A DNA stretch of 59,476 nucleotides from an uncultured Gemmatimonadota bacterium (GCA_964613475.1 CAZTGV010000001.1:1-59476), one strand, 5' to 3'. Positions 3,382 through 41,142 are shown, numbered from the stretch's first letter. Program-made: numbers and translations. Notes: generated by a model not told the origin, from the sequence alone.

Positions 3382-4795
3382 GGAGCCGAGCCTGTTCGGG
3401 TCCGGGCCCGAGGAAGCCGGTCGCGGGGGCTTCGGCGCCGGTCGCGCGGGACCGCTCGAGGTGGACGATCCCCGGGCGCCGCTCGCCGCCCGGATGCGTC
3501 CCCGCACGCTGGAGGAGTTCGTCGGTCAGGAGTCGCTCGTGGGGCCGGGACGGCCGCTCCGCGAGCTCATCGAGCGGGACGGCGTGCCGAGCCTGATCCT
3601 CTGGGGGCCGCCCGGCTCCGGGAAGACGACCCTGGCCGCGGTGATCGCCCGGCACGCGCGGGCCGCCTTCGTCCCGTTCAGCGCGGTGACCGAGGGGATC
3701 CCGCGGGTCCGCGAGGTGATCGCCGAGGCGGAGACGCGCCGGCGCGCCTCCGGTCGGCCCACCCTGCTCTTCGTGGACGAGATCCACCGGTTCAACCGCG
3801 CGCAGCAGGACGCGCTGCTCCCGCACGTGGAGACGGGCCGCATCACCCTGATCGGCGCCACCACCGAGAACCCCAGCTTCGAGGTCGTGGGGCCGCTGCT
3901 CAGCCGGACGCGGGTGTTCGTGCTCGAGCCCCTCACGGCGGAGGAGGTGGAGACGATCTGCCGCCGCGCCCTGGCCGACGAGGAGCGGGGGCTGGGCGGC
4001 CGGGTGGAGGCGGATCCGGAGGCGCTCGGGCTGCTGGCGACCGGAGCGGACGGCGACGCCCGGCGGGCGCTGAACGCGCTGGAGACGGCGGCGGCCCTGG
4101 CCGCCGAGCGCGGCCAGGGGACGATCGGGCGCGACGAGGTGGAGGCGGCCCTCCAGCGCCGCTATCCCCGCTACGACAAGTCCGGGGAGGAGCATTACAA
4201 CCTCATCTCCGCCCTGCACAAGGCGGTGCGGGGCTCGGACCCGGACGGCGCGCTCTACTGGCTGGCGCGGATGCTCGAGGCCGGCGAGGACCCGCTCTAC
4301 CTGGCGCGCCGGCTCGTCCGCATGGCGGCCGAGGACGTCGGGCTGGCCGACCCGCGGGCGCTCGAGGTGTGCATGGCGGCCCGGGACGCCTACCATTTCC
4401 TCGGCTCGCCGGAGGGCGACCTGGCGCTGGCGGAAGCGGCCGTCTACCTGGCAGCGGCGCCCAAGTCGAACCGGGTCTACGAGGCGTTCGGGGCGGCCCG
4501 GGGCGCCGCCCGCGAGACCCCGGCCGCGCCGGTGCCGCTCCACCTGCGGAACGCCCCCACCGCGCTCATGCGGGAGCTCGGCTACGGGGCCGACTACCGG
4601 TACGACCACGCCTATGATGAGGGCGTGGCCCCGCAGGACTACCTGCCGCCGGAGCTGGCGGGCCGCCGTTTCTATCGCCCGGGCGGACGGGGCGAGGAAT
4701 CGGAGATCGCCCGCCGCCTGGACGCCGCCGCGGAGGCCCGCCGGTCCCCGAAGGAGCCCCCGGACGCCGGGATCCGCGAGGAGGAGACAGGGTAA
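3374..4795 (+). CDS. rarA: Replication-associated recombination protein A (MgsA/RarA AAA+ ATPase)
   Basis: [63 protein letters not shown]. Confidence 0.96.
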
Positions 4796-4805
4796 CGGGA
4801 TCCGT

Positions 4806-6107
4806 ATGCCGGACATGATCGAGGTCCGACCCTCGGAGGAGCGCGCCATCCTGATCGGGGCGCCGCCCCTCGACATGCCGCAGCCGATCGTGGACGAGCA
4901 CCTCGAGGAGCTCGCCCGCCTGGCCGACACCGCCGGCGTGCGGATCCTGGGAAGCGTCGTGCAGCGCCTCGCCTCGCCGAACCCCTCGCTCTACATCGGG
5001 AGCGGGAAGGCGGACCAGCTCCGCGGGGTGGTGGAGGAGGAGGGCGCCACCCTCCTCATCTTCGACGAGGACCTCTCGCCCGCCCAGGGCTCCGCCCTCG
5101 AGGAACGGCTGAACGTCCGGATCATGGACCGGACGGAGCTCATCCTCGACATCTTCGCGCTCCGGGCCCGCACCGCGGAGGCGAAGCTCCAGGTGGAGCT
5201 CGCCCAGCTCGAGTACCTGCGTCCGCGGCTCAAGCGGATGTGGACCCACCTGTCCCGGATCGGCGGCGGCATCGGCGCCCGGGGGCCGGGCGAGCAGCAG
5301 CTCGAGACGGACCGCCGGATCATCGACCGGCGGATCGCGCGGCTGCGGCGCGAGCTGAAGGACATCGCCCGGGCGCGGGACACCCGGCGCAAGGCGCGCC
5401 GCGGGGAGTTCCAGGTCGCTCTGGTCGGCTACACGAACGCGGGGAAGTCCTCGATCCTGCGGGCGTTGTCCGGAAGCGACCTCTTCGTCGAGGACCGCCT
5501 GTTCGCAACCCTGGACTCGGCTACCCGCGCCGTGGAGCTCGGCGACGGCCACCAGGCCGTCCTCACCGACACGGTCGGCTTCATCCGAAAGCTGCCCCAC
5601 CACCTGGTCGCCTCCTTCCGCGCCACGCTGGAGGAGGCGCGCGCGGCGGACCTCCTCCTGCACGTGGTGGACGTCTCCGCGCCGAATTGGGAGCAGCGCA
5701 AGGAGGTCGTGAACCAGGCGCTCGTCGAGGCGGGCGCCGCCGACCGACCGACCCTGCTCGTCTTCCACAAAGTGGACCGGCTCACCCACGCCGAGGAGGA
5801 GGCCCTCCGCGCCCGCTCCACCGCCGTCCTGGGACCCCACGTCGCCACCTCCGTGCTGGAGCGGGACGGCCTGCGGCCCCTGCTCGAGGCGCTCCGGGCC
5901 GCCATCCGGGACCGGCTGGCCACGGTGCGCGTGAGCTTCCCGGCCGCCGATGGCCGCACGCTGGCCGAGGCGTACCGGGAGGGCGAGGTGTTGCGCCGGG
6001 AGCTCACGAACGGACGGATCGTGCTCACCGCCCGCGTTCCGGAGGCGGTGGTCGGCCGGTGGCGCGGGCAGGCCGGGATCGAGGTGAGCCGGCAGGACGC
6101 GGCTTGA
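4806..6107 (+). CDS. hflX: GTPase HflX
   Basis: IGSGK, DRTELILDIFA, AKLQVELAQL, GPGEQQLE, GYTNAGKSS, LFATLD, DTVGFIRKLPH. Confidence 0.97.
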   Translation: MPDMIEVRPSEERAILIGAPPLDMPQPIVDEHLEELARLADTAGVRILGSVVQRLASPNPSLYIGSGKADQLRGVVEEEGATLLIFDEDLSPAQGSALEERLNVRIMDRTELILDIFALRARTAEAKLQVELAQLEYLRPRLKRMWTHLSRIGGGIGARGPGEQQLETDRRIIDRRIARLRRELKDIARARDTRRKARRGEFQVALVGYTNAGKSSILRALSGSDLFVEDRLFATLDSATRAVELGDGHQAVLTDTVGFIRKLPHHLVASFRATLEEARAADLLLHVVDVSAPNWEQRKEVVNQALVEAGAADRPTLLVFHKVDRLTHAEEEALRARSTAVLGPHVATSVLERDGLRPLLEALRAAIRDRLATVRVSFPAADGRTLAEAYREGEVLRRELTNGRIVLTARVPEAVVGRWRGQAGIEVSRQDAA

Positions 6108-30529: not shown

Positions 30530-31459
30530 ATGAATCGGCGCGGCTGGTCGCTGGCCCGGGCGGTGGGCCTCGCCTTCCTGGTGGTGGTGCTGTCGCCGAT
30601 CAATCCGCTCGTGCTGGTGTGCGTGCCGCTCGCGGTGCTCCTGCTCGCCTATCGGCTTCGCAGCCCCTGGTCGGTGGCGCTCGCCGCCCTCCTGCTCCTC
30701 GCCGCCTTCGGCATGGTGCCGGAGCGGCCGTCGCCCCTGTGGCACGCCGAACGCGCCTGGGCGCTCCTGGTGGCCGGCGGCTTCGTGCTGGCCGGCGTCC
30801 TCCGCTTGCGGGGTGGCCTGCTGGTCCGCTGCCTGCTCGGCGTCGGGACGGGAGCGCTGGCGATCGCCCTCTCCGCCGCCGCGAAACCGGCGGTGATCTC
30901 GGAGGTGGACTGGTGGGTCGAGGCCCAGCTCGGGCGGGCCGCGCGGATGGCGTCCGGCTGGCTGGCGGTGCCGGAGAGCCCCTGGTCGGGCTTCGGCACG
31001 GCCGTGCGGGACATCGTGGAGCTCCAGGTGCTGCTCTACCCGGCCCTCCTGGCCCTGGCGACGCTCGCCGCCCTCGCGGTGGCCTGGTTCGTGATCGTCC
31101 GTCTGGAGGGCGTGGGCGAGGCGCTCGCCCCGCTCCGGGACTTCCGTTTCCGGGACGAGCTGGTGTGGCTGCTGATCGGCGGCATCCTGCTCTTTCTCCT
31201 CCCGGCCGGCGAGTGGGCCGAGCGGCTGGGGGAGAACGTCATGGCCTTCATGGGTGGGCTGTACCTGCTCCGCGGTCTCGCGGTGCTGGTGTGGTTGGGG
31301 GCGGCCCTGGTCACCTCGGCCTGGTCCGCCGCCCTGTGGACGGCCCTCGCGCTGCTCTTCTACCCTGTGGTGGTGGGCGCGGCGCTCCTCATGGGACTGA
31401 GCGACACGTGGTTGGACCTGCGGGAGCGGGTTCGGCGGGCGACCGACGACGGCGGCTGA
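30530..31459 (+). CDS. YybS/DUF2232 family membrane protein
   Basis: Polytopic hydrophobic protein between rpsR and rplI; FRFRDELVW, LGLSDTWLDLRER-like C-terminal motif. Confidence 0.8.
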   Translation: MNRRGWSLARAVGLAFLVVVLSPINPLVLVCVPLAVLLLAYRLRSPWSVALAALLLLAAFGMVPERPSPLWHAERAWALLVAGGFVLAGVLRLRGGLLVRCLLGVGTGALAIALSAAAKPAVISEVDWWVEAQLGRAARMASGWLAVPESPWSGFGTAVRDIVELQVLLYPALLALATLAALAVAWFVIVRLEGVGEALAPLRDFRFRDELVWLLIGGILLFLLPAGEWAERLGENVMAFMGGLYLLRGLAVLVWLGAALVTSAWSAALWTALALLFYPVVVGAALLMGLSDTWLDLRERVRRATDDGG

Positions 31460-31529
31460 GCCGCGGACGCATCCGGATACCCCCGGTCGGGCGCGCGGTC
31501 CGACCGGGATTCACGAGAGAGAGGCGGCA

Positions 31530-31976
31530 GTGGAGATCATCCTGAAGCGAGACGTCGAGAACCTCGGCGAGGCCGGGGAGGTCGTGGACGTGAAGCCCGG
31601 CTACGCCCGCAACTACCTGATCCCGAGGGGATTCGCCATGCGGGCGACCGAGGGCAACCGGCGTCGACTGGACGAGGAGCGCCGGCACATCCGGCGAGCC
31701 GAGGGTCGCGAGCGCGAGCGGGCCGAAGGGCTGGCCGAGAAGCTGGACGGGCTGGCCATGACGTTCACCGTGCTCGCCGGCGAGGGCGGCAAGCTCTTCG
31801 GCTCGGTCACTCCCGCGGACATCGCCGACCACCTGGCCAGCGAGGGTCTGGAGGTTGACCGGCGGACGATCGAGCTCGAGGAGCCGATCAAGGAGCTCGG
31901 CGTCTACCAGGTGCCGATCCGTCTCCATCCCGAGGTGCGGCCCGAGGTCAAAGTGTGGGTCGTGGCGGAGGAGTAG
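31530..31976 (+). CDS. rplI: 50S ribosomal protein L9
   Basis: MEIILKRDVENLGEAGEVVDVKPGYARNYLIP, GKLFGSVT, IKELG. Confidence 0.97.
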   Translation: MEIILKRDVENLGEAGEVVDVKPGYARNYLIPRGFAMRATEGNRRRLDEERRHIRRAEGRERERAEGLAEKLDGLAMTFTVLAGEGGKLFGSVTPADIADHLASEGLEVDRRTIELEEPIKELGVYQVPIRLHPEVRPEVKVWVVAEE

Positions 31977-31988
31977 CGGTCGGCCGGC

Positions 31989-32387
31989 ATGGGTCAGGCG
32001 CAGCGGGGCGAGGGACGCTCGGGCGTGCTGGACGGACTCGGCGGCGGGCCGCACCCGGATGAGCTGGCGCGTGCTTCGGTGGCGGCCCTGGAGCGGAACG
32101 CGCGCGAGCCGGTCGTGCTGGACCTCCGCGGGCTGTCGGATGCGACCGACTACTTCCTGATCGCTTCGGGCGATTCCGACGTCCACACCCGGGCGATCGC
32201 GGAGAACGTCCTCGAGCGCATGGAGGCCGGCGGCTTCCGGCCGGTCGGGGTGGAGGGGAAGGCGCAGGGCCGGTGGATCCTGATGGATTTCGTGAACGTG
32301 ATCGTGCACATCTTCCTGCCGCGGGTCCGCGAGTTCTACGGGCTCGAGACCCTCTGGGGAGACGCCCCGCGGCAGTCCCTGTCCTAA
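31989..32387 (+). CDS. rsfS: Ribosome silencing factor RsfS
   Basis: VLDLRGLS.ATDYFLIASG, WILMDFVNVIVHIF, REFYGLETLW. Confidence 0.94.
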   Translation: MGQAQRGEGRSGVLDGLGGGPHPDELARASVAALERNAREPVVLDLRGLSDATDYFLIASGDSDVHTRAIAENVLERMEAGGFRPVGVEGKAQGRWILMDFVNVIVHIFLPRVREFYGLETLWGDAPRQSLS

Positions 32388-32459
32388 CGGGTCGCCGAGG
32401 GCGCCCAGCCACTCGGGCGTCTCGGCGCTCCGCGAGGCCCGCCGCGGGGGTCGCGTTTC

Positions 32460-32489
32460 TTGCGGCCCTTTTCGGCCGGCGGCTATCTT
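32460..32489 (+). promoter_or_regulatory. Putative sigma70 promoter giving a leaderless mRNA for the SPOR/smc unit
   Basis: TTGCGG (32460-32465), 18-nt spacer, TATCTT (32484-32489), then 5 nt to GTG32495; no SD. Confidence 0.55.
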
Positions 32490-32494
32490 CCTCC

Positions 32495-34132
32495 GTGTCT
32501 CACCGTTCGAGCCACGCCCTCCTTCGGGGTCGGTCGGTCGTCCTCGCGCTGCTCCTCGCCGGGTGTGGCGGGGATCGGGATCCGTCCGCCGAGCCGGCGC
32601 CCCGCGGCGTGGAGCTTGTGGCCGGCACCTCCCTGGAGCGTTACGGGCTCCTGACCGTTCCGCGGGAAGGCGGCCCGGCCTCGCTCCGCGCCGTGGAGTC
32701 GCCCGAGCGGGTGCTGTGGACGGGCTCGACCGAGCTGCCCGCCGCCGTCGAGGCGCGGCCGCTCGGCGCGTCGGTCGTGCTCAAGACGGCCGAAGGCGCG
32801 ATCCACCGGTACGATCCGGTGAGGGACCGCCTCGAGGAGTTCGGGAGCGTCTCCTCCGATGCCGTGTGGACCGGGTACGGCGATCGCGGGCTGTGGGTGG
32901 ACCGCCGCGAAGGCGTGGTGGTCGCGGTGGGCGAGGAGGGCGCCTGGCGGTACGACCTCTCCCGTCCCCTCCGGTGGGCGGCGCCGGTCGAGGACGCGGG
33001 CGTGGTCGCCCTGGTCGGTGCGGAGGAGGGACCGACCCTGTGGCTCCTCCGGGCCGGACAGCCGGAGCCCGAGGCGGTCGGCCGGGCCGACGTCCGGCTG
33101 CCCGCCCTGGTGACCGCGTGGGGACGGCGGCTCGTCTTCACCGGCGCGGACGGCCGTACGCTCGTCACCATCGGGCTTCCGCAGCTCGCCGAGGTGGACC
33201 GCTTGGAGCTCGAGGGGGAGGCGGGGGCGCTGGCGGCCTCTCCCTCCTCGCACCAGCTCTACGCCGGCACCGCCTCCGCGCCGCGGGTGGTGGGCGTCAA
33301 CCGGTTCACCGGGCGGACCTGGTCGCTGGCCCGGCTGGAGCGTCCGGCGCGCGCCCTCCGGCCGACCCTGTTCGGCGACGGCCTGCTGGCGCACGACGGG
33401 GCCGAGACCTGGTGGCTGTCGCTGGAGGGGGGAGCGCCGACCGCGCTGCCCACGGAGTGGCGGGAGGACCTTCCCCTCGGCCTTCCCGGGGGCCGCGTCC
33501 TCGCCCTGCGGGACGGGGTGGTCCGACTGCTGGGATCCGACGGAGCCGAGATCGGTCCGGCCCTGGAGGATGAGACCGACGCGTGGTGGGTGCCCGTGCG
33601 GTGGCGCCCGCTGCGCCCGGCGGTGGTGGCCACGCCGGCCGGCGAGCGGGAAGGGGAGGCGGAGGCGCCGACCGCCGGGGAGGACGCGCGGGAGTCGGAG
33701 GCCGTCGTCGCCGGCGCGGACCAGGACGGGCGGACGCCGGGCGGCGAGGCGGGGGACGCGACCGCGGACGTCGAGACGGAGCGGCCGGAGCCGGCGGCGC
33801 CCGAGGTCGCCCGGCCCGACGCGCCGCCGCCGGACGAGGCGCCGGCGGCGCCGCGGGAGATGGACGCGGGCTTCTACGCGATCGTCGCCTCGTCCCAGCG
33901 GTTGCCCGGGGTGGCGGACCTGGCGAGCTCGTTGGGCGAGGCCGGATTCCCGGCCCGCCTACAGCGGCACCGGGACGAGGCCGGCGAGATCTGGTACCGT
34001 TGTCTGGTCGGACCGTACGCCTCGCGGGAGGGGGCGGAGGAAGCGGCGGCCACGCTTCGCCGCGAGAGGGGGTTGCAGGGGTGGATCACGGAAGTGGCGC
34101 CGGACGTCCGGACCGAAGAGATCCAGGGGTAG
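32495..34132 (+). CDS. Lipoprotein: predicted beta-propeller-like N-domain, acidic linker, C-terminal SPOR domain
   Basis: Lipobox LAGC, beta-rich Trp-containing repeats, Ala/Glu/Pro linker, SPOR-like FYAIVASS..WYRCLVGPYASREGAEEAAATL. Confidence 0.8.
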   Translation: MSHRSSHALLRGRSVVLALLLAGCGGDRDPSAEPAPRGVELVAGTSLERYGLLTVPREGGPASLRAVESPERVLWTGSTELPAAVEARPLGASVVLKTAEGAIHRYDPVRDRLEEFGSVSSDAVWTGYGDRGLWVDRREGVVVAVGEEGAWRYDLSRPLRWAAPVEDAGVVALVGAEEGPTLWLLRAGQPEPEAVGRADVRLPALVTAWGRRLVFTGADGRTLVTIGLPQLAEVDRLELEGEAGALAASPSSHQLYAGTASAPRVVGVNRFTGRTWSLARLERPARALRPTLFGDGLLAHDGAETWWLSLEGGAPTALPTEWREDLPLGLPGGRVLALRDGVVRLLGSDGAEIGPALEDETDAWWVPVRWRPLRPAVVATPAGEREGEAEAPTAGEDARESEAVVAGADQDGRTPGGEAGDATADVETERPEPAAPEVARPDAPPPDEAPAAPREMDAGFYAIVASSQRLPGVADLASSLGEAGFPARLQRHRDEAGEIWYRCLVGPYASREGAEEAAATLRRERGLQGWITEVAPDVRTEEIQG

Positions 34133-34146
34133 CGGTCCGCCGTCCC

Positions 34147-35556
34147 GTGCGGGACAGGCCCGAGCTCGAGGCGCGCTTCCTGGCTCGCCAGGTGCCTCCC
34201 GAGGCGCGGGTCGTGGCGCTCGCCTTCTCCGGCGGGGAGGCGGAGCGGGCGGCCCGCGCCGCCGACGCCGCGGCCGCGGGCGTGGCCCGTCGCCGCGAGC
34301 ACACGCTTCTCGTGTGCTGTGAAGGAGGCGGCTCGGCGCTCGACGCCATCCTGGACGCCTCGGAGTCGCCGGGGCTGCTGGCGGCGCTGACGGGCGAGGA
34401 GCGTCTCACCGCGATCGCCCTGCGGCGTGAGGACCGTCCCTACGTGTACCTGCCGGCCGGCGGCCGATCCCTCGACCCGGAGGCGCTGCGTCCCGACGGC
34501 CCCTTCGCGGCCTTCGTGCGCCGCGTCCGAGAGCGCGGAGGAACCCTCCTGCTCTTCGCGTCCGAGGAGCTGCTGGCGGTGAGGGCGTTCTCGAGCCTGC
34601 TGGACGGCTACGTGGCCCTCGGGGACGTATACACGCGCCCGGCCACCCCCGGCGTGCCGCAGCTCGCCCGGCTGGATTTCGAGGAGCCGCGCGCCGCCAC
34701 GGAGGTCCGGAGCGCGCGGGACGAGGCGGCGGCGGGAGCGGACGAGCCCACGGCGGGGAACGAGCCCGCGGCGGCGACCGAGCCGGACGAGCCCGCCGCG
34801 GAGTCCGCGGGAGAGGGCCTCGACGGCCCGCCGGACGGCGAGGCGCGGCCCGGCGGATGGCGTCGGCATCGCGCGCGCGTGAGCCCCCCGCTGGCTCGCA
34901 TCGCGGCCGGGGTGGCGATCGTGGCGCTCCTCCTCGTCGGTTGGTGGGCGGTCGCCCGAGAGGCGGCCGCTCCCGGACCGGCGGGCGGGAGCGTGGACGT
35001 CGCGAGCGCCGACGAGGTCGACCTGGCCGTGGACGGCGAGGCGCTTCTCGCGGCGGTGGACGGCTCCCCCGAGCTTCCCTATTCGGTCCTCATCGCCAGC
35101 TACGCGGCGGCGGCGGACGCCCGGGAGCGGATCGACCGCCTGCGGCGAGCGGACGAGGGCCTCTTCTTCATCGCGCCCACGCCGGTTCGGGGCGCCATCT
35201 ACCACCGGGTGTTCGCCGGCGCCCGGGCGGGCCCGGAGGCGGGGCGGGCGCTCATGCAGCGGCTGGTCGCCTCGGGGCGGAAGGAGACCGCCAGCGCGTG
35301 GGACGTGCGTCCGGCGGGGCTGGCCTTCCGGCTCGGGCTCTTCGCCTCGGAGGGCGCCGCGCGCCGCGCCGCGGAGGCGCTGGAGGAGGAGGGGGTGCCG
35401 GCCTACGTCCTCCCGGCGGGGGAGGAGGACACCCGCGCGTGGCAGGTGCTGGCGGGAGCGTACGAATCGCGAGCCGCCGCCGGGCCGATGGCGGCGCTGC
35501 TGGAGCGGGAGGGGCTGGCGGTGGACCTGGTGACGCGCAGAGGGGAGGACCGGTGA
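34147..35556 (+). CDS. Membrane protein: degenerate MinD/ParA/BY-kinase-like domain, linker, TM, two SPOR domains
   Basis: N-domain follows the MinD/Wzc pattern but lacks GKT; TM IAAGVAIVALLLVGWWAVA; SPOR-like YSVLIASY..YHRVFAG and FRLGLFAS..WQVLAGAYESR. Confidence 0.75.
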   Translation: MRDRPELEARFLARQVPPEARVVALAFSGGEAERAARAADAAAAGVARRREHTLLVCCEGGGSALDAILDASESPGLLAALTGEERLTAIALRREDRPYVYLPAGGRSLDPEALRPDGPFAAFVRRVRERGGTLLLFASEELLAVRAFSSLLDGYVALGDVYTRPATPGVPQLARLDFEEPRAATEVRSARDEAAAGADEPTAGNEPAAATEPDEPAAESAGEGLDGPPDGEARPGGWRRHRARVSPPLARIAAGVAIVALLLVGWWAVAREAAAPGPAGGSVDVASADEVDLAVDGEALLAAVDGSPELPYSVLIASYAAAADARERIDRLRRADEGLFFIAPTPVRGAIYHRVFAGARAGPEAGRALMQRLVASGRKETASAWDVRPAGLAFRLGLFASEGAARRAAEALEEEGVPAYVLPAGEEDTRAWQVLAGAYESRAAAGPMAALLEREGLAVDLVTRRGEDR

Positions 35557-38500
35557 GGATCAAGTCGCTCACGCTCCATGGCTTCAAATCGTTCGCGGAC
35601 CGGACGGAGATCGACCTCCACGAGGGCATCACCGCCGTCGTGGGCCCGAACGGCTGCGGCAAGTCCAACATCTCCGACGCGCTGCGCTGGGTGCTCGGCG
35701 AGCAGCGGCCGACCGCCATCCGGGGCTCCCGCATGGAGGAGGCGATCTTCGGGGGGACGGCGGAGCGCCGGCCGATCCATCGCGCCGAGGTCTCGCTCGC
35801 CTTGTCCAACGAGGACGGGACGCTCTCCCTCCCGTACAGCGAGGTCGTCATCGGGCGCACCGTCCACCGAGGCGGGGAGAGCGACTACGCGTTGAACGGG
35901 GCGAGCTGCCGCCTCAAGGACATCCAGGACCTCTGCCGCGACACCGGGTTGGGCGCGAACGCCTACGCGGTGATCGAGAACCGGATGATCGACGCGATCC
36001 TGAGCGACCGGGCGGAGGAGCGGCGCGCCCTGTTCGAGGAGGCGGCCGAGATCGGGCGCTACAAGGACCGCCGGCGCACGGCCCTGCGCCGGCTCGAGCA
36101 GGCGGAGGCCGACGTCCAGCGGCTGGACGACGTGCTCGGGGAGGTGCAGTCCAAGGTCCGCTCGCTCGCCGCGCAGCGCGGGAGGGCCGACCGGTACCGC
36201 CGGCTGCGCGACCGCCGGCTGCAGCTGGAGGTGGCGTGCGCGGATGCCCGGCTCGAGCGCACCGCCCGGGCGCTGGAGCGGGCCGAGGAGGAGCTCGAAG
36301 CGCTCCGCGACCGACGCCCGGGGGAGGAGACGGCCCTCCGCACGGCCGAGACCGAGGCGGAGGCCCTGCGGGTTCGACTCGCCGAGCGGGAGCGCGAGCG
36401 CTCCGCGGCCGCGCGGCGCCTGGAGGAGAGCCGCCGGGCCGTGGAGGCGCGGGAGCGCGAGCGTCTGGTCGCCGAGGAGCGGGCGGCCGCGGCCCGGGAG
36501 CGGATCGCCGCCATCGACGCGGAGCGCGAACGCCTCGCCCTGCGCCGGGCCGAGGTGGAGGCCGAGGGCGAGCGAGCCGAGAAGGCCGCCGAGGCGGCGA
36601 CGGCCGCGGTGGCGGAGCGGGCGGAGCGGTCGGAGGGGCTCGCCGAGGAGGCGGAGCGGCTGGACGCCCGGCGTCGGTCCGCCGCGGAGGGGGAGGCGGC
36701 CGCGCGCGCGCGGCTCGAGGAGGCGGAACGGGCGCTCGGCCGGCTGCGGGCGGAACGCGAGGCGGCGGAGGATCGGCTCGCGGAGCGCTCCGAGGAGCTG
36801 GCCAGCCGGCGCGAGGCGGCCCGCGAGCTGGAGGCCGCCGAGTCGGAGCTGCGGGAGACGGAGGCGGAGGCAGCCGCGCGGGAAGCGGACGCGGCCGCCG
36901 GCGTCGATGCGTCGGAGGCTCGGGTGGAGGCCGCGCGCGAGGCGCTCGAGGCTCGCCGGGCGGAGGCCCGGACGCTGCGAGACCGGCTGGCGGAGGCCGA
37001 GGGGACGCTCTCCTCCCTCCGCGCGCGGCAGTCCAGCCTCGAGTCGTTCCTCGCCTCGGGGGGCGCGCTGCCCCCCGTGGTGCGAGCGCTCCTGGAGGAG
37101 GGCGCCGGCGGGGCCCGCCTGCACGGCGTCCTGGCCGACGCGATCCGCGCCCCGGCCGACCTGGCGACCGCGGTGGAGGCCCATCTCGGCGCCTACCTGC
37201 ACGCCATCCTCGTGGAGGGCTGGCGCGACGTCGAGCGGCTCCGCGCCTGGCTGCGCACGCGCGAGGGCGAGGACGGGCTCCTGCTGCTTCCGCTCGACCC
37301 GGGACCGGCCGGCCCGGGGACGCCGCCGCCCGCCTCGGGCCGATCGCTGCTGGACGCGGTGGAGGTGCAGGGTCGCGGAGCGGACTGGGCGCGGTCGCTC
37401 CTCGGAGACGTGGCGCTCGCCGAGGCGGGCGCGCCGCCGGAGCGGGGCGCCTGGGTGCGGGCGGACGGCGTGGGCCAGGACGCCCGCGGCGCGGTGCGGC
37501 TCGGCCGGCCGGGCGGAGGGCGCGGGGCCCTGCGCCCGCGCGCGGAGCTGGAAGCGCTGCGCGACCGGACGGCGGAGGCGGCGGCGGCGCGGGAGCGCCT
37601 GCGCGGGGAGCTGGAGGCGGCGGAGGCCCGGGCGGCCGAGGCGGAGGCCGCGGCGCTCGCCCGGGAGCGCGAGCTGGAGGAGGCCGCGCGCGCGCGCCGC
37701 GATGCCGCCGCGGAGCGGGAGGCGGCGGAGGCCCGCCGCGAGCGGCTGGCCGCCGAGCGCCGGGAGGCGGCGCGCCGGATCGAAACGCTCGAGGACGCCC
37801 GCGCCTCGGTGCGCGGCCGGGCCGAGGAGGAGGATGCGCGGCTCGCCGAGTTGAAGGCCGCGCGGGAGGCCGCCGAGGCCGCGCTGGCCGAGGCGCGCGC
37901 CGCGGCGGAAGCGGCGCGGGAGGCGTGGGAGGCGGCCCGCGACCGGCTGCACGACCTGCAGCTCGAGGCCGCCCGCGCCGAGGCGGACGTGCGCGCGGCG
38001 TCCGACGCCCGCCGGCGCGCGGCCCGGGCGCTCGAGGAGCTCGACGCGCGGGCGCGTCGTCTCGCGGAGGAGCGCCGCGGCCAGGAGGAGGCGGTTCAGC
38101 GGGGGCGCGCGGCCCTTGAGACGGGCGAGGAGGAGCTCGACCGCCTGCTCGAGGCCCACGCCCAGACGGAGGGCGAGATGCGGGCCGCCGAGCGTCGTCT
38201 GGACGAGGGACGGGCCGAGCTGGACGAGCGGGAAGCCGCCCTCCGCGAGGCGCGCCGTACGGAGCGGGAGCACGCCGAGCGGCGCCACGCCCTGGAGCTC
38301 GAGGTGGCCGAGCTGCGGGCCGCGCGCGCCTCGGTCCGCGAGCGCCTGGAGACCGAGTGGGACGCCACCCTCGAGGAGCTCCGCCCCCGGGTCGAGCCGC
38401 CGGAGCCGGAGGCCGGCGGGTCGGAGGCGTGGGAGGAGGAGCTGGAGGACGTCCGCCGTGGCCTCGCCCGGCTCGGACCGGTCAATCTGCTGGCCGAGGA

Positions 38501-39086
38501 GGAGTACGAGGAGGAGAAGGAGCGGCTGGACTTCCTCCTCGCCCAGCGCGAGGACCTGGTCGAGGCGCGCGACGACCTGCGGGACTCGATCCGGCGGATC
38601 AACCGGACCGCCGCCGACGCGTTCGAGGCCACCTTCGACCAGGTGCGGGAGAACTTCCGGCGCACCTTCCGGACCCTGTTCGAGGGCGGCGAGTGCGACC
38701 TGTGGCTCGAGGATCCCGAGGACCCGCTCGACTCGGCGATCGAGATCTCCGCCAGCCCGCGAGGCAAGCGGACGCAGCGCATCCACCTCCTGTCGGGTGG
38801 GGAGCGCGCCCTCACCGCGCTCGCCCTGCTGTTCGCGATCTATCTCGCCAAGCCGAGCCCCTTCTGCCTGCTGGACGAGGTGGACGCCCCCCTGGACGAG
38901 ACGAACGTCCTCCGCTTCGTCCGCATGTTGGAGCGCTTCAAATCGGACACCCAGTTCATCGTGATCACGCACAACCCGCGCACCATCGAGGCGGCGGACT
39001 GGATCTACGGGGTGACGATGCAGGAGCCCGGCGTCTCCTCGATCGTCGGCGTGACCTTCGACGAGATGGCCGGGCAGGTCGCGTGA
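35553..39086 (+). CDS. smc: Chromosome segregation protein SMC
   Basis: LHGFKSF, VGPNGCGKSN, long coiled coils, hinge, LLSGGERAL, LLDEVDAPLD, VITH; GTGA overlap with the upstream gene. Confidence 0.97.
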   Translation: MRIKSLTLHGFKSFADRTEIDLHEGITAVVGPNGCGKSNISDALRWVLGEQRPTAIRGSRMEEAIFGGTAERRPIHRAEVSLALSNEDGTLSLPYSEVVIGRTVHRGGESDYALNGASCRLKDIQDLCRDTGLGANAYAVIENRMIDAILSDRAEERRALFEEAAEIGRYKDRRRTALRRLEQAEADVQRLDDVLGEVQSKVRSLAAQRGRADRYRRLRDRRLQLEVACADARLERTARALERAEEELEALRDRRPGEETALRTAETEAEALRVRLAERERERSAAARRLEESRRAVEARERERLVAEERAAAARERIAAIDAERERLALRRAEVEAEGERAEKAAEAATAAVAERAERSEGLAEEAERLDARRRSAAEGEAAARARLEEAERALGRLRAEREAAEDRLAERSEELASRREAARELEAAESELRETEAEAAAREADAAAGVDASEARVEAAREALEARRAEARTLRDRLAEAEGTLSSLRARQSSLESFLASGGALPPVVRALLEEGAGGARLHGVLADAIRAPADLATAVEAHLGAYLHAILVEGWRDVERLRAWLRTREGEDGLLLLPLDPGPAGPGTPPPASGRSLLDAVEVQGRGADWARSLLGDVALAEAGAPPERGAWVRADGVGQDARGAVRLGRPGGGRGALRPRAELEALRDRTAEAAAARERLRGELEAAEARAAEAEAAALARERELEEAARARRDAAAEREAAEARRERLAAERREAARRIETLEDARASVRGRAEEEDARLAELKAAREAAEAALAEARAAAEAAREAWEAARDRLHDLQLEAARAEADVRAASDARRRAARALEELDARARRLAEERRGQEEAVQRGRAALETGEEELDRLLEAHAQTEGEMRAAERRLDEGRAELDEREAALREARRTEREHAERRHALELEVAELRAARASVRERLETEWDATLEELRPRVEPPEPEAGGSEAWEEELEDVRRGLARLGPVNLLAEEEYEEEKERLDFLLAQREDLVEARDDLRDSIRRINRTAADAFEATFDQVRENFRRTFRTLFEGGECDLWLEDPEDPLDSAIEISASPRGKRTQRIHLLSGGERALTALALLFAIYLAKPSPFCLLDEVDAPLDETNVLRFVRMLERFKSDTQFIVITHNPRTIEAADWIYGVTMQEPGVSSIVGVTFDEMAGQVA

Positions 39087-39195
39087 GCACTCGTCGGCCC
39101 GCCGCCGGCCCTCGCGTGCGCCGCCGCGACGTCGTCCCGGCCTCGCGCGCGGGCGGCTCGCGTTCGCCTCGGCGCGCGACGGCGTTGAGCCCGCG

Positions 39196-39969
39196 ATGAC
39201 GCTGCGCCTCACCGTGGTGGGGAGCGGGACGGTGGTGCCGGAGGGCGACCGCGGCGGCGCCTGTCATTTCCTGGAGGCCGGGGAGCGGCGGATCCTTCTG
39301 GACTGCGGGCCGGGCGCGGTGCAGGGGCTGGCGCGGCTGGGGCTCCCGTGGGCGGAGCTCACGGACCTGGCGATCACGCACTTCCACGCGGACCACGTGG
39401 GGGCGCTCCCCGGGCTCTTCTTCGGCCTCCGGCACGGGATCTTTCCGGCGCGAGAGGCGCCCCTGGACGTCTGGGGGCCGCCGGGCACGGCACGGCTGTT
39501 CGAGCGGCTGGCGGACGCCCTGGGCGAGTTCCTGCTCGACCCGGGATTCCCGGTGAAGGTGAACGAGCTCGCGCCGCACGGCGACGCGGCGCCGGGGCGG
39601 AGCGTCCTGCTCCGCAGCCGTCCCACGCCGCACACGGACGAGAGCCAGGCGCTGCGCCTGGAGGCTCCGGAAGGATCCGTCGGCTACACGGGGGACACGG
39701 GACCCGACGAGGGGCTGGGCGCGTTCTTCGAGGGCGTGGACATCCTCCTGTCGGAGTGCTCGCTCCGCGACGAGGAGGTGGGGGACAACCACCTGTCGCC
39801 CGGACGGGTGGCCCGGCTGGCGAGCGCGGCCCGGCCCGGCGTGCTCGTCCTCACGCACGTCTACCCGCACGTGCGCGCGCAGGCGGACCCGGTGCGGCTG
39901 GTCCGCGAGGCCGGCTACGCCGAGGGAGAGGTGGAGCTGGCGTTCGACGGGTGGAGCCGCACGCTGTGA
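39196..39969 (+). CDS. MBL-fold metallohydrolase, RNase Z/BN-like
   Basis: VVGSG, LLDCGPG, ITHFHADH (HxHxDH), YTGDT, SECS, HL, LTHVYP. Confidence 0.85.
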   Translation: MTLRLTVVGSGTVVPEGDRGGACHFLEAGERRILLDCGPGAVQGLARLGLPWAELTDLAITHFHADHVGALPGLFFGLRHGIFPAREAPLDVWGPPGTARLFERLADALGEFLLDPGFPVKVNELAPHGDAAPGRSVLLRSRPTPHTDESQALRLEAPEGSVGYTGDTGPDEGLGAFFEGVDILLSECSLRDEEVGDNHLSPGRVARLASAARPGVLVLTHVYPHVRAQADPVRLVREAGYAEGEVELAFDGWSRTL

Positions 39970-40074
39970 AGGCGGGCTGAAGCCCGTTTGTTGACGAAGG
40001 CCCCAGCCTCCCAGAGCTTTGCGGGACCTGGCGCACCGCGGATCGCCTCGAACCGATGCGGATGAAGGGGACCT

Positions 40075-41142
40075 ATGCTCGTCGTGATGAAGCACGACGC
40101 TAGCCCGGAGCACATCGAGGGTGTGGTGCGCACCATCCAGGCGATGGGCTATCGGGCCGAGCCGATTCCCGGCAAGCAGCGGACGGCCGTGGGGCTGGTC
40201 GGCAACGACGGCCGCGTCGACGCGGACCGCCTCGTCTCGCTGGACGGCGTCCTCCGGGTCATCCACGTCTCCCAGCCCTACAAGCAGGTGAGCCGCGAAT
40301 GGCGGCCGGACGACACGGTGTTCGATCTGCCGAACGGCGTCCGGGTGGGCGGCCCGGACGTGGTCGTCATGGCCGGTCCCTGCGCGGTGGAATCCGAGGA
40401 GCAGATCCTCCGGACCGCGCGGCGCGTGGCCGCCGCGGGCGCGGTGCTCCTGCGTGGCGGCGCCTTCAAGCCGCGCACGTCCCCCTACTCGTTCCAGGGG
40501 CTCGGCGAGGAGGGCCTGCGCCTCCTGGCGCTCGCCCGCGAGGAGACCGGGCTGGCGATCGTGACCGAGGCGCTGGATCCCGAGGCGGTCGAGCTGGTCG
40601 CCGAGTACGCCGACGTCATCCAGATCGGCGCCCGGAACATGCAGAACTACTCGCTCCTCCGGGCCGCGGGACGGGCCGGGAAGCCGGTCCTGCTGAAGCG
40701 CGGCATGTCCGCCACGGTGAAGGAGCTGCTCCTGGCGGCCGAGTACATCGTGCTCGAGGGGGAGCCGCGCGTCATCCTGTGCGAGCGGGGGGTTCGCAGC
40801 TTCGACGACCACGCGCGGAACCTGCTCGACCTCACGGCGGTGGCTACCGTGCAGGAGCTCTCGCACCTGCCGATCATCGCGGATCCGAGCCACGGGACGG
40901 GGGCGCGGCAGAAGGTGCCGCCCATGGCGCGCGCCGCGGTCGCCGCCGGCGCCGACGGGATCATGGTGGAAGTGCATCCGGATCCGGCGAGCGCCGTCTC
41001 CGACGGCGCCCAATCCCTCACTCCCGACGCGTTCGCCGAGCTGATGGGGCAGCTCCGCACCATCGCGGGCACCATCGGCCGCTCGCTGGCGGAGCTCCCC
41101 CCGGCGCGCGCGCGACGGCCGCGCCAGGCCGTCGGCGGCTGA
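40075..41142 (+). CDS. aroF: 3-deoxy-7-phosphoheptulonate (DAHP) synthase, class I-beta with N-terminal regulatory domain
   Basis: AGPCAVES, RGGAFKPRTSPYSFQGLG, QIGARNMQN, LKRG, CERG, DPSHGTG, EVHPDP. Confidence 0.96.
   Translation: MLVVMKHDASPEHIEGVVRTIQAMGYRAEPIPGKQRTAVGLVGNDGRVDADRLVSLDGVLRVIHVSQPYKQVSREWRPDDTVFDLPNGVRVGGPDVVVMAGPCAVESEEQILRTARRVAAAGAVLLRGGAFKPRTSPYSFQGLGEEGLRLLALAREETGLAIVTEALDPEAVELVAEYADVIQIGARNMQNYSLLRAAGRAGKPVLLKRGMSATVKELLLAAEYIVLEGEPRVILCERGVRSFDDHARNLLDLTAVATVQELSHLPIIADPSHGTGARQKVPPMARAAVAAGADGIMVEVHPDPASAVSDGAQSLTPDAFAELMGQLRTIAGTIGRSLAELPPARARRPRQAVGG

Follow-up and report, generated by a model that had tools for sequence, protein, structure and literature searches.

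Why should two genes for SPOR-domain proteins stand directly upstream of smc in a bacterium of the phylum Gemmatimonadota? The question arises from a 59,476-nucleotide stretch of DNA from an uncultured member of the phylum (GCA_964613475.1, CAZTGV010000001.1:1-59476; "the window" below means this whole stretch), in which three genes occupy positions 32495-39086: P1, for a lipoprotein with one SPOR domain; P2, for a membrane protein with two; and smc. All features given below for the window lie on the plus strand. SPOR domains send proteins such as FtsN, DamX, DedD and RlpA to denuded glycan at the division septum, and a sequence-only reading of the window had proposed from this arrangement an operon coupling the septum to chromosome segregation. 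The answer that we favour, at about even confidence, is that P1 and P2 act at the septal wall, are particular to this lineage and are co-expressed with smc, and that P2 provides a docking platform under the membrane, made from a dead bacterial tyrosine kinase (BY-kinase) domain.

P2 (34147-35556, with a GTG start codon at 34147) encodes a bitopic membrane protein of 469 residues. In its AlphaFold2 (AF2) model, with a mean predicted local distance difference test score (pLDDT) of 83.8, a BY-kinase-like domain is followed by a disordered acidic linker, one transmembrane helix, and two SPOR domains. The first of these, the cytoplasmic domain (residues ~20-176, 34204-34674), is a compact alpha/beta structure with pLDDT ~95. 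The transmembrane helix, residues 249-274 (34891-34968), is modeled as a helix by AF2 and is immediately preceded by the basic sequence WRRHRAR, from which the positive-inside rule places the N-terminus inside the cell; the motif WRRHR is conserved across the P2 alignment A1. Pfam model PF05036, with a gathering cut-off of 21 bits, scores 45.7 bits to P2 over two stretches and 39.5 bits to P1. Pfam, AF2 and a genome-wide SPOR scan all support the P2 domains at 35077-35277 and 35329-35508, and that scan recovers the identical three domains of P1 and P2.

The N-terminal domain of P2 is homologous to BY-kinases. By Foldseek against the PDB, its best matches are VpsO, Wzc, CapAB, BceF and Etk, with E-values from 3e-5 to 1e-4 for the first four and up to 1e-3 overall, and TM-scores up to 0.65; FleN, MinD and FlhG make up the next tier. 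A sequence profile built from 27 diverse N-domains and searched against PDB sequences finds Wzc (1.4e-15) and Etk (2e-15), then CapB and VpsO, with FleN, Soj and MinD in a second tier at ~1e-5. The label "pseudo-MinD", given to this protein by the sequence-only reading, is therefore correct at the level of the superfamily, with MinD, FleN and Soj matching in the second tier of Foldseek and profile searches at E-values from 1e-5 to 1e-3, but the domain is more exactly described as a dead BY-kinase domain.

The loss of catalytic motifs is complete in the sequences aligned. The Etk P-loop, GATPDSGKT, aligns to the non-conserved P2 segment aeeardwaa, and the Etk Walker B sequence DTPP aligns to vlPa, with the Asp facing a hydrophobic residue. 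Every aligned P2 member, in all lineages and families examined, has other residues in place of the Walker A motif GxxxxGK[ST] and the Walker B Asp. The deviant Walker A motif KGGxxGK[ST] of MinD/ParA ATPases is likewise missing from the P2 alignments, and the linker after the BY-kinase-like domain contains no tyrosine and no C-terminal tyrosine cluster. With Walker A, the Walker B Asp and the tyrosine cluster all lost, P2 is not a kinase; judged by fold and by sequence motifs, its N-domain is specifically a dead BY-kinase domain. The net charge of the domain lies between 0 and -13 across the 27 members checked, an acidic character that favors protein binding over DNA binding. Binding to DNA was considered as a role for the domain and is unlikely, the domain being acidic in 27 of 27 members checked.

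P2 belongs to a family of 524 clusters (at 50% identity), found with E-values below 1e-30 among 1.84 billion representatives. On occurrence beyond the phylum, the smc-anchored scan kept Gemmatimonadota only among its best 80 loci, and a profile search of 5.8 billion proteins gave the same set again. Every P1 or P2 homolog with a source name comes from Gemmatimonadota, one of them labeled Candidatus Palauibacter. The P2-type domain begins no later than residue 62 in 149 of the 150 matches listed; in the remaining one, P0216, a 969-residue protein from a public contig of 20,471 nt, it is C-terminal. P0216 begins as a complete Wzc-type BY-kinase, with a GNVR domain, a Walker A sequence EEGKTT, and a tyrosine tail (YRRYFSPYGYGG), and its frame continues without a break through a dead-kinase domain of the P2 type (residues 782-926, 174 bits); P0216 may be a true fusion, or else a missed stop codon has merged two adjoining genes.

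P1 (32495-34132, stop codon TAG) encodes a 545-residue lipoprotein with a C-terminal SPOR domain. Its signal peptide (32495-32566), read from the sequence, ends ...VVLALLLAGC24; the lipobox LLLAGC agrees with the pattern [LVI][ASTG][GA]C, and lipidation at Cys24 is predicted. That cysteine is retained in at least 90% of 47 homologs, for which the consensus is AACGG. The public gene call for P1 is just 507 residues, 38 codons shorter, and lacks both the signal peptide and the lipobox cysteine conserved among homologs (window positions 32495-32608). The AF2 model of P1, with mean pLDDT 81 and a core at 95-98, shows an all-beta propeller at residues ~48-370 (32636-33604, pLDDT ~95-98), a disordered, acidic, proline-rich linker at residues 377-448, and the SPOR domain at residues 459-532 (33869-34090), for which the Pfam match, the genome scan (same coordinates) and AF2 agree. 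Foldseek matches to the propeller are generic WD40/YVTN propellers only (E ~1e-10), and neither Pfam nor Foldseek reveals a recognizable catalytic family there. Among the ~70 P1 homologs, every one with a source name is from Gemmatimonadota.

The three genes are packed as the sequence-only reading had described them. P1 and P2 are separated by a 14-nt spacer (34133-34146, cggtccgccgtccc), and the P2/smc junction (35542-35556) consists of a Shine-Dalgarno-like sequence, GGGGAGGA (35542-35549), followed by a GTGA stop/start overlap, in which the smc start codon GTG (35553-35555) overlaps the P2 stop codon TGA (35554-35556). The smc gene itself (35553-39086) encodes a canonical bacterial SMC of 1177 residues. 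GC content in the window is ~75%, and long open reading frames occur in every frame; at that composition, those in other frames or on the other strand are chance products. Such frames, including a 1269-residue antisense frame over smc, were discarded on the periodicity of GC content at third codon positions (GC3), which stands at 0.92 for 32495-34132, 0.92 for 34147-35556 and 0.95 for 35553-39086. Reading frames, GC3 and junction sequences thus all bear out the claimed layout.

Is the arrangement an accident of one genome? Conservation of the three-gene order across the phylum had been named as a test of the proposal, and three of four samples show that the order is kept. In the first, 30 loci found through P2 and drawn from two families of the same order, P1-P2-smc occurs in 30 of 30. 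Of the second, 20 matches to the P2 alignment from across the phylum, 18 immediately precede smc, which most of them overlap by 4 nt. The third sample was collected independently of P2, as the best 80 loci anchored on smc, all of them from named Gemmatimonadota; 72 of these 80 have a P2-type gene immediately before smc. Sixty of the 72 encode the N-domain plus SPOR, eight encode the N-domain and a C-terminal transmembrane segment but no SPOR domain, and four, at contig ends, show the SPOR part only. At the 72 junctions there are 27 overlaps of 4 nt, 13 overlaps of 1 nt and 16 direct abutments (56 of 72 in total). The eight remaining loci comprise three with only P1 adjacent to smc and five with neither P1 nor P2. 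The fourth sample took 20 genomes: 18 without a P2 match in the first phylum search, plus the two exceptions from the second sample, G337 and G062. The outcome here is mixed: in many of these genomes the gene just before smc encodes a P1-type lipoprotein, in family f6 it encodes a P2-type protein that is tail-anchored and has no SPOR domain, and in family f10 it is unrelated. The P2-smc pair is found in at least two classes and down to ~20% identity between P2 sequences. Two loci labeled Gemmatimonas, L137 and L150, have the full P1-P2-smc order.

Several variants and exceptions deserve description. SPOR-less forms of P2, made of the dead-kinase domain, an acidic linker and a C-terminal transmembrane helix, still abut smc in L054 (G337), L067 (G117), L091-L093, L097, L099, L106, L112 and L114. 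Tandem P2-type genes lie directly upstream of smc in L100 (587-1892 and 2192-4493) and in L113. In family f3 (L056, L059, L060, L063), P1 is preceded by a large protein that by eye resembles TolB-type repeats plus an outer-membrane beta-barrel, and rsfS is not found there. One exception in the second sample is a second copy of P2 in G337, in which another P2-type gene accompanies smc; this additional copy, which bears SPOR domains, lies elsewhere among unrelated genes, and its neighbors (a flavin adenine dinucleotide flavoprotein, an MscS-like channel and a MacB-like permease) are uninformative on function. The other seemed to be a relocated P2 in family f10 (G062), and was rejected: the match is an ExeA-like protein with AAA_22 and SPOR domains, not a P2 orthologue, and the frame upstream of smc in that genome appears by eye to be homocysteine-methyltransferase/methylenetetrahydrofolate reductase-like. 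The matched gene, L049 (G062:C7, 5011-6912), encodes an ExeA/GspA-like AAA_22 ATPase fused to SPOR, beside genes for a secretin and for PilM-like, type II secretion system M-like proteins. It represents another architecture in the phylum that joins an ATPase to SPOR, and one that profile searches can confuse with P2.

Conservation of gene order is meaningful only against the background of the neighborhood. In the window, the same-strand genes upstream of P1 are those for L25, pth, an H+-PPase, S6, a DUF2232 protein, L9 and rsfS (31989-32387), and downstream of smc lie genes for a metallo-beta-lactamase (MBL)-fold hydrolase, a 3-deoxy-D-arabino-heptulosonate 7-phosphate (DAHP) synthase, and dnaX. 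These unrelated neighbors served as a control across the 80 smc-anchored loci. Of the 63 with enough sequence, 50 have the gene for the MBL hydrolase, for the DAHP synthase or for both downstream of smc on its strand, and rsfS is found no more than 4.5 kb upstream in 32 of 69; in related loci, rplI-rsfS often precedes P1-P2-smc. Junction retention is thus 90% for P2-smc against 79% for smc-MBL/DAHP synthase, a modest difference in samples that are not phylogenetically independent. Where P1 and P2 are both lacking, rsfS lies directly upstream of smc in three of five loci: in L104 and L109 (~3947-4504) the end of rsfS and the start of smc share 4 nt, and in L111 (3943-4317) rsfS stands upstream.

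The neighborhood as a whole, rplI-rsfS-P1-P2-smc-MBL-aroG-like, is a conserved housekeeping block. A stop/start overlap is no specific evidence of partnership, since rsfS forms one with smc in lineages that lost P1 and P2; nor does gene order point to SMC in particular as the client of P2, since unrelated neighbors are retained almost as often. The proposal of a septum-chromosome coupling system therefore keeps its premise, an order conserved across the phylum, while the step from that order to SMC in particular does not follow.

The putative promoter was the weakest item in the sequence-only reading. A consensus scan of 31300-40200 found no sigma-70-type promoter, and the only element seen by eye, one that failed the scan, is a weak promoter-like TTGCGG-N18-TATCTT at 32460-32489. 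Any transcript from it would be nearly leaderless, since it ends 5 nt before the P1 start. Just before it, downstream of rsfS, a weak terminator-like hairpin (32436-32455) is followed by TTTCTTG; its function as a terminator is putative.

If SMC were the client of P2, might SMC itself show it? The protein scores 917 bits to TIGR02168 over residues 2-1167, against a curated cut-off of 567 bits, and 224 and 36.6 bits to the Pfam models SMC_N and SMC_hinge. The hinge variant noticed earlier, G-x6-G-x3-LG in place of a motif ending in GG, is real (G639-x6-G646-x3-L650-G651, 37467-37505). In SMCs from across the phylum, 16 and then 74 further sequences, the final GG is degenerate (LG, VG, IG, LP, LS) or the segment is deleted, and this occurs both with and without P2. 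Covariation of hinge and P2 was accordingly rejected: SMCs without an upstream P2 do not keep a canonical GG hinge. The variant, being phylum-wide and independent of P2, is a lineage trait and no sign of a special partner; nor is the degenerate glycine motif an argument against identity as SMC. The hinge segment has no match in the PDB by sequence. The SMCs of L107, L108, L118, L033 and L034 are without the whole second half of the hinge, which holds G-x6-G-x3-GG, and are otherwise full length (~1125 residues).

The usual partners of SMC lie elsewhere in the source genome, a 2.69-Mb assembly of 188 contigs that is 89% complete. As had been claimed, scpA and scpB are absent from the vicinity; neither is in the window, and both were located, adjoining, on contig C48 (scpA at 4629-5264, 101 bits; scpB at 5360-5836, 174.5 bits). 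A search for parABS, also suggested earlier, found a ParA-like gene and parB adjacent on contig C5 (47872-49255 and 49459-50648), with three parS-like sites, TGTTTCACGTGAAACG, CGTTTCACGTGAAACA and CGTTTCACGTGAAACG, each with 1-2 mismatches, just upstream of the pair. ScpAB and ParABS are present and look ordinary.

Taken together, these observations suggest the following model. P1 and P2 would recognize septal (denuded) peptidoglycan by means of their SPOR domains and, with smc, would be expressed from one compact block of genes, probably on a shared transcript. P1 is probably an outer-membrane lipoprotein, whose propeller would offer a docking surface in the periplasm. P2 spans the inner membrane and would be held at the constricting septum by its two SPOR domains. 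Since its N-domain cannot bind or hydrolyze ATP or be tyrosine-phosphorylated, the domain would serve as a nucleotide-independent docking platform, as in EcpK and HfsB. Translation of P2 and SMC from one message, probably coupled, would tie the output of a division-site protein to that of condensin. The cytoplasmic client of P2 may be the divisome or a division-site factor, or possibly SMC. On present evidence, the tie to SMC is one of co-expression in a conserved block, rather than a demonstrated physical bridge.

Some of our results weigh against this model. The P2-smc junction is the best kept in the block (90% against 79%). It outlasts loss of the SPOR domains, with eight loci and the f6 genomes having a tail-anchored dead-kinase protein that abuts smc, and it outlasts both tandem duplication (L100, L113) and an altered upstream context (family f3). 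Where smc has no P2 beside it, P2 is usually missing from the whole genome, as in five of the eight genomes without P2 beside smc. Such persistence would fit a tie to SMC more specific than co-expression alone. P1 and P2, moreover, are not the sole readers of septal wall, since the genome encodes four SPOR proteins, with the two others at C56:9572-9769 and C31:14924-15088.

These points lend some weight to a physical tether, a possibility we entertain tentatively and rate below co-expression. In that case P2 would be a single-polypeptide bridge through the inner membrane from septal peptidoglycan to condensin: its dead-kinase domain, as a platform or possibly a ring like the octamers of Wzc and CapB, would bind SMC-ScpAB (at hinge or head) or ParB directly, P2 anchored by SPOR would hold, clear or organize the chromosome at the closing septum, and P1 would carry the connection on to the outer membrane. 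Adjacency of P2 and smc with a stop/start overlap in ~90% of sampled genomes, across at least two classes and ~20% P2 identity, is in its favor, as are the rarity of P2 away from smc and the nature of the part that persists beside smc after SPOR loss, namely the cytoplasmic domain and its membrane anchor. Proteins of the ParA/MinD superfamily are frequently linked to chromosome segregation, and the SMC hinge in this phylum is unusually divergent. There is also a precedent in Streptococcus pneumoniae, where CpsD, a septal BY-kinase/ParA-like protein, acts with ParB and RocS and is functionally tied to chromosome segregation (bioRxiv 10.1101/359943). CpsD, however, is an active kinase encoded in a capsule operon, its link runs by way of ParB and the DNA-binding RocS rather than SMC, and no SPOR domain takes part.

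The synteny control counts against a tether, with unrelated neighbors of smc kept nearly as well and rsfS taking up the 4-nt overlap when P1 and P2 are lost. Several lineages retain smc without P2, and the divergence of the hinge is independent of P2. Conserved smc operons with unrelated genes exist elsewhere, as in rnc-smc-ftsY of Firmicutes. Nor, among the best 150 of the 524 family clusters, is a P2-type domain ever fused to SMC, ScpAB or ParB, which counts against a tether as well.

Comparison with characterized systems helps to place P2 as we prefer to read it, a septal docking platform co-expressed with smc. The closest parallels for the N-domain are EcpK of Myxococcus xanthus and HfsB of Caulobacter crescentus, BY pseudokinases proposed, and partly shown, to act as phosphorylation-independent scaffolds (PMC12004946). 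Like them, P2 has a BY-kinase fold without Walker motifs or a tyrosine-rich tail. EcpK and HfsB, however, stand alone as soluble proteins, their genes lie in polysaccharide (Wzx/Wzy) clusters, and they bind kinase-less type 2 polysaccharide co-polymerases (PCP-2). In P2, by contrast, an acidic linker and a transmembrane helix join the domain to two periplasmic SPOR domains, and the P2 gene stands between smc and the gene for a SPOR lipoprotein, with none for polysaccharides nearby. The active enzymes Wzc/Etk, CapB, VpsO and BceF supply the best fold and sequence matches (Foldseek E 3e-5, profile E 1e-15), but P2 is without the P-loop Lys/Thr, the Walker B Asp and the C-terminal tyrosine cluster; its kinase-like domain precedes the transmembrane helix, reversing the order, and it has no periplasmic co-polymerase domain.

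In topology P2 instead resembles FtsN, DamX and DedD of Proteobacteria, with N-terminus inside, one transmembrane helix, a flexible linker, and SPOR at the C-terminus, and some sources label homologs "DedD" or "DamX". Those proteins have a short or unstructured cytoplasmic part and one SPOR domain, whereas P2 has a folded dead-kinase domain of ~160 residues and two SPOR domains, and no sequence relation of P2 to them was detected beyond SPOR. P1 is similarly comparable to RlpA and other SPOR lipoproteins, as an outer-membrane-type lipoprotein with SPOR at its C-terminus, but where RlpA has a double-psi beta-barrel lytic-transglycosylase domain, P1 has a beta-propeller of no recognizable catalytic family.

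The likeness to pseudokinases of polysaccharide export raises an alternative that we think improbable, in which the P2 domain docks the tail of a PCP-2 or Wzc-type co-polymerase, the SPOR domains place export of capsule or exopolysaccharide at the septum, and adjacency to smc is incidental. All characterized BY pseudokinases do act on PCP-2 proteins (PMC12004946), the genome does encode one genuine Wzc-like protein (C76, an 822-residue frame, 78.6 bits to the N-domain profile), and in P0216 a complete Wzc (GNVR domain, GKT of Walker A, tyrosine tail) runs into a P2-type domain. P0216, however, is a single case that may be a merger of adjacent genes. P2 has its own transmembrane anchor and a domain order the reverse of that in Wzc, and no polysaccharide genes lie beside it in the window or in ~130 related loci, where its neighbors are rsfS, P1 and smc.

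Could P2 instead be the missing division-site landmark of the phylum, a MapZ-like positioning factor bound to the wall that marks division sites, present or to come, and recruits FtsZ or FtsA? Gemmatimonadota divide at unusual positions, Min, MipZ, PomZ, MapZ and SsgB all seem to be missing from their genomes, and ParA-like proteins have been named as candidates for placing the division site (PMC11271474, 2024). The present genome agrees in having no MinD above cut-off, and the topology of P2, with a cytoplasmic domain, a transmembrane helix and a wall-binding domain, is like that of MapZ and of FtsN. SPOR domains, however, bind glycan processed by amidases, which appears only after constriction has begun, so that late recruitment fits better; with P2 also missing from several lineages of the phylum and unable to cycle ATP as positioning ATPases do, a landmark role is unlikely.

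In full-text searches of the literature, SPOR did not turn up together with a BY-kinase in any paper, nor with SMC in Gemmatimonadota. Each part of P2 is of a known kind; its domain architecture and its fixed place beside smc appear to be undescribed. BY pseudokinases have so far been described in polysaccharide export only, and P2 extends that range: it joins a dead domain of the ParA superfamily, of BY-kinase type, to domains that bind septal wall, hard-wired to expression of smc. Should the link to SMC be co-expression only, P2 would be a lineage-specific divisome component, a useful if unsurprising addition. Should P2 prove to be a bridge, clearance of the chromosome would be coupled to closure of the septum, in a phylum without Min or other known positioning systems. 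For Gemmatimonadota, abundant in soil and sea yet with very few members cultured, P2 and its family of at least 524 clusters offer a concrete candidate for a function at the division site or late in division, and for membrane anchoring of condensin.

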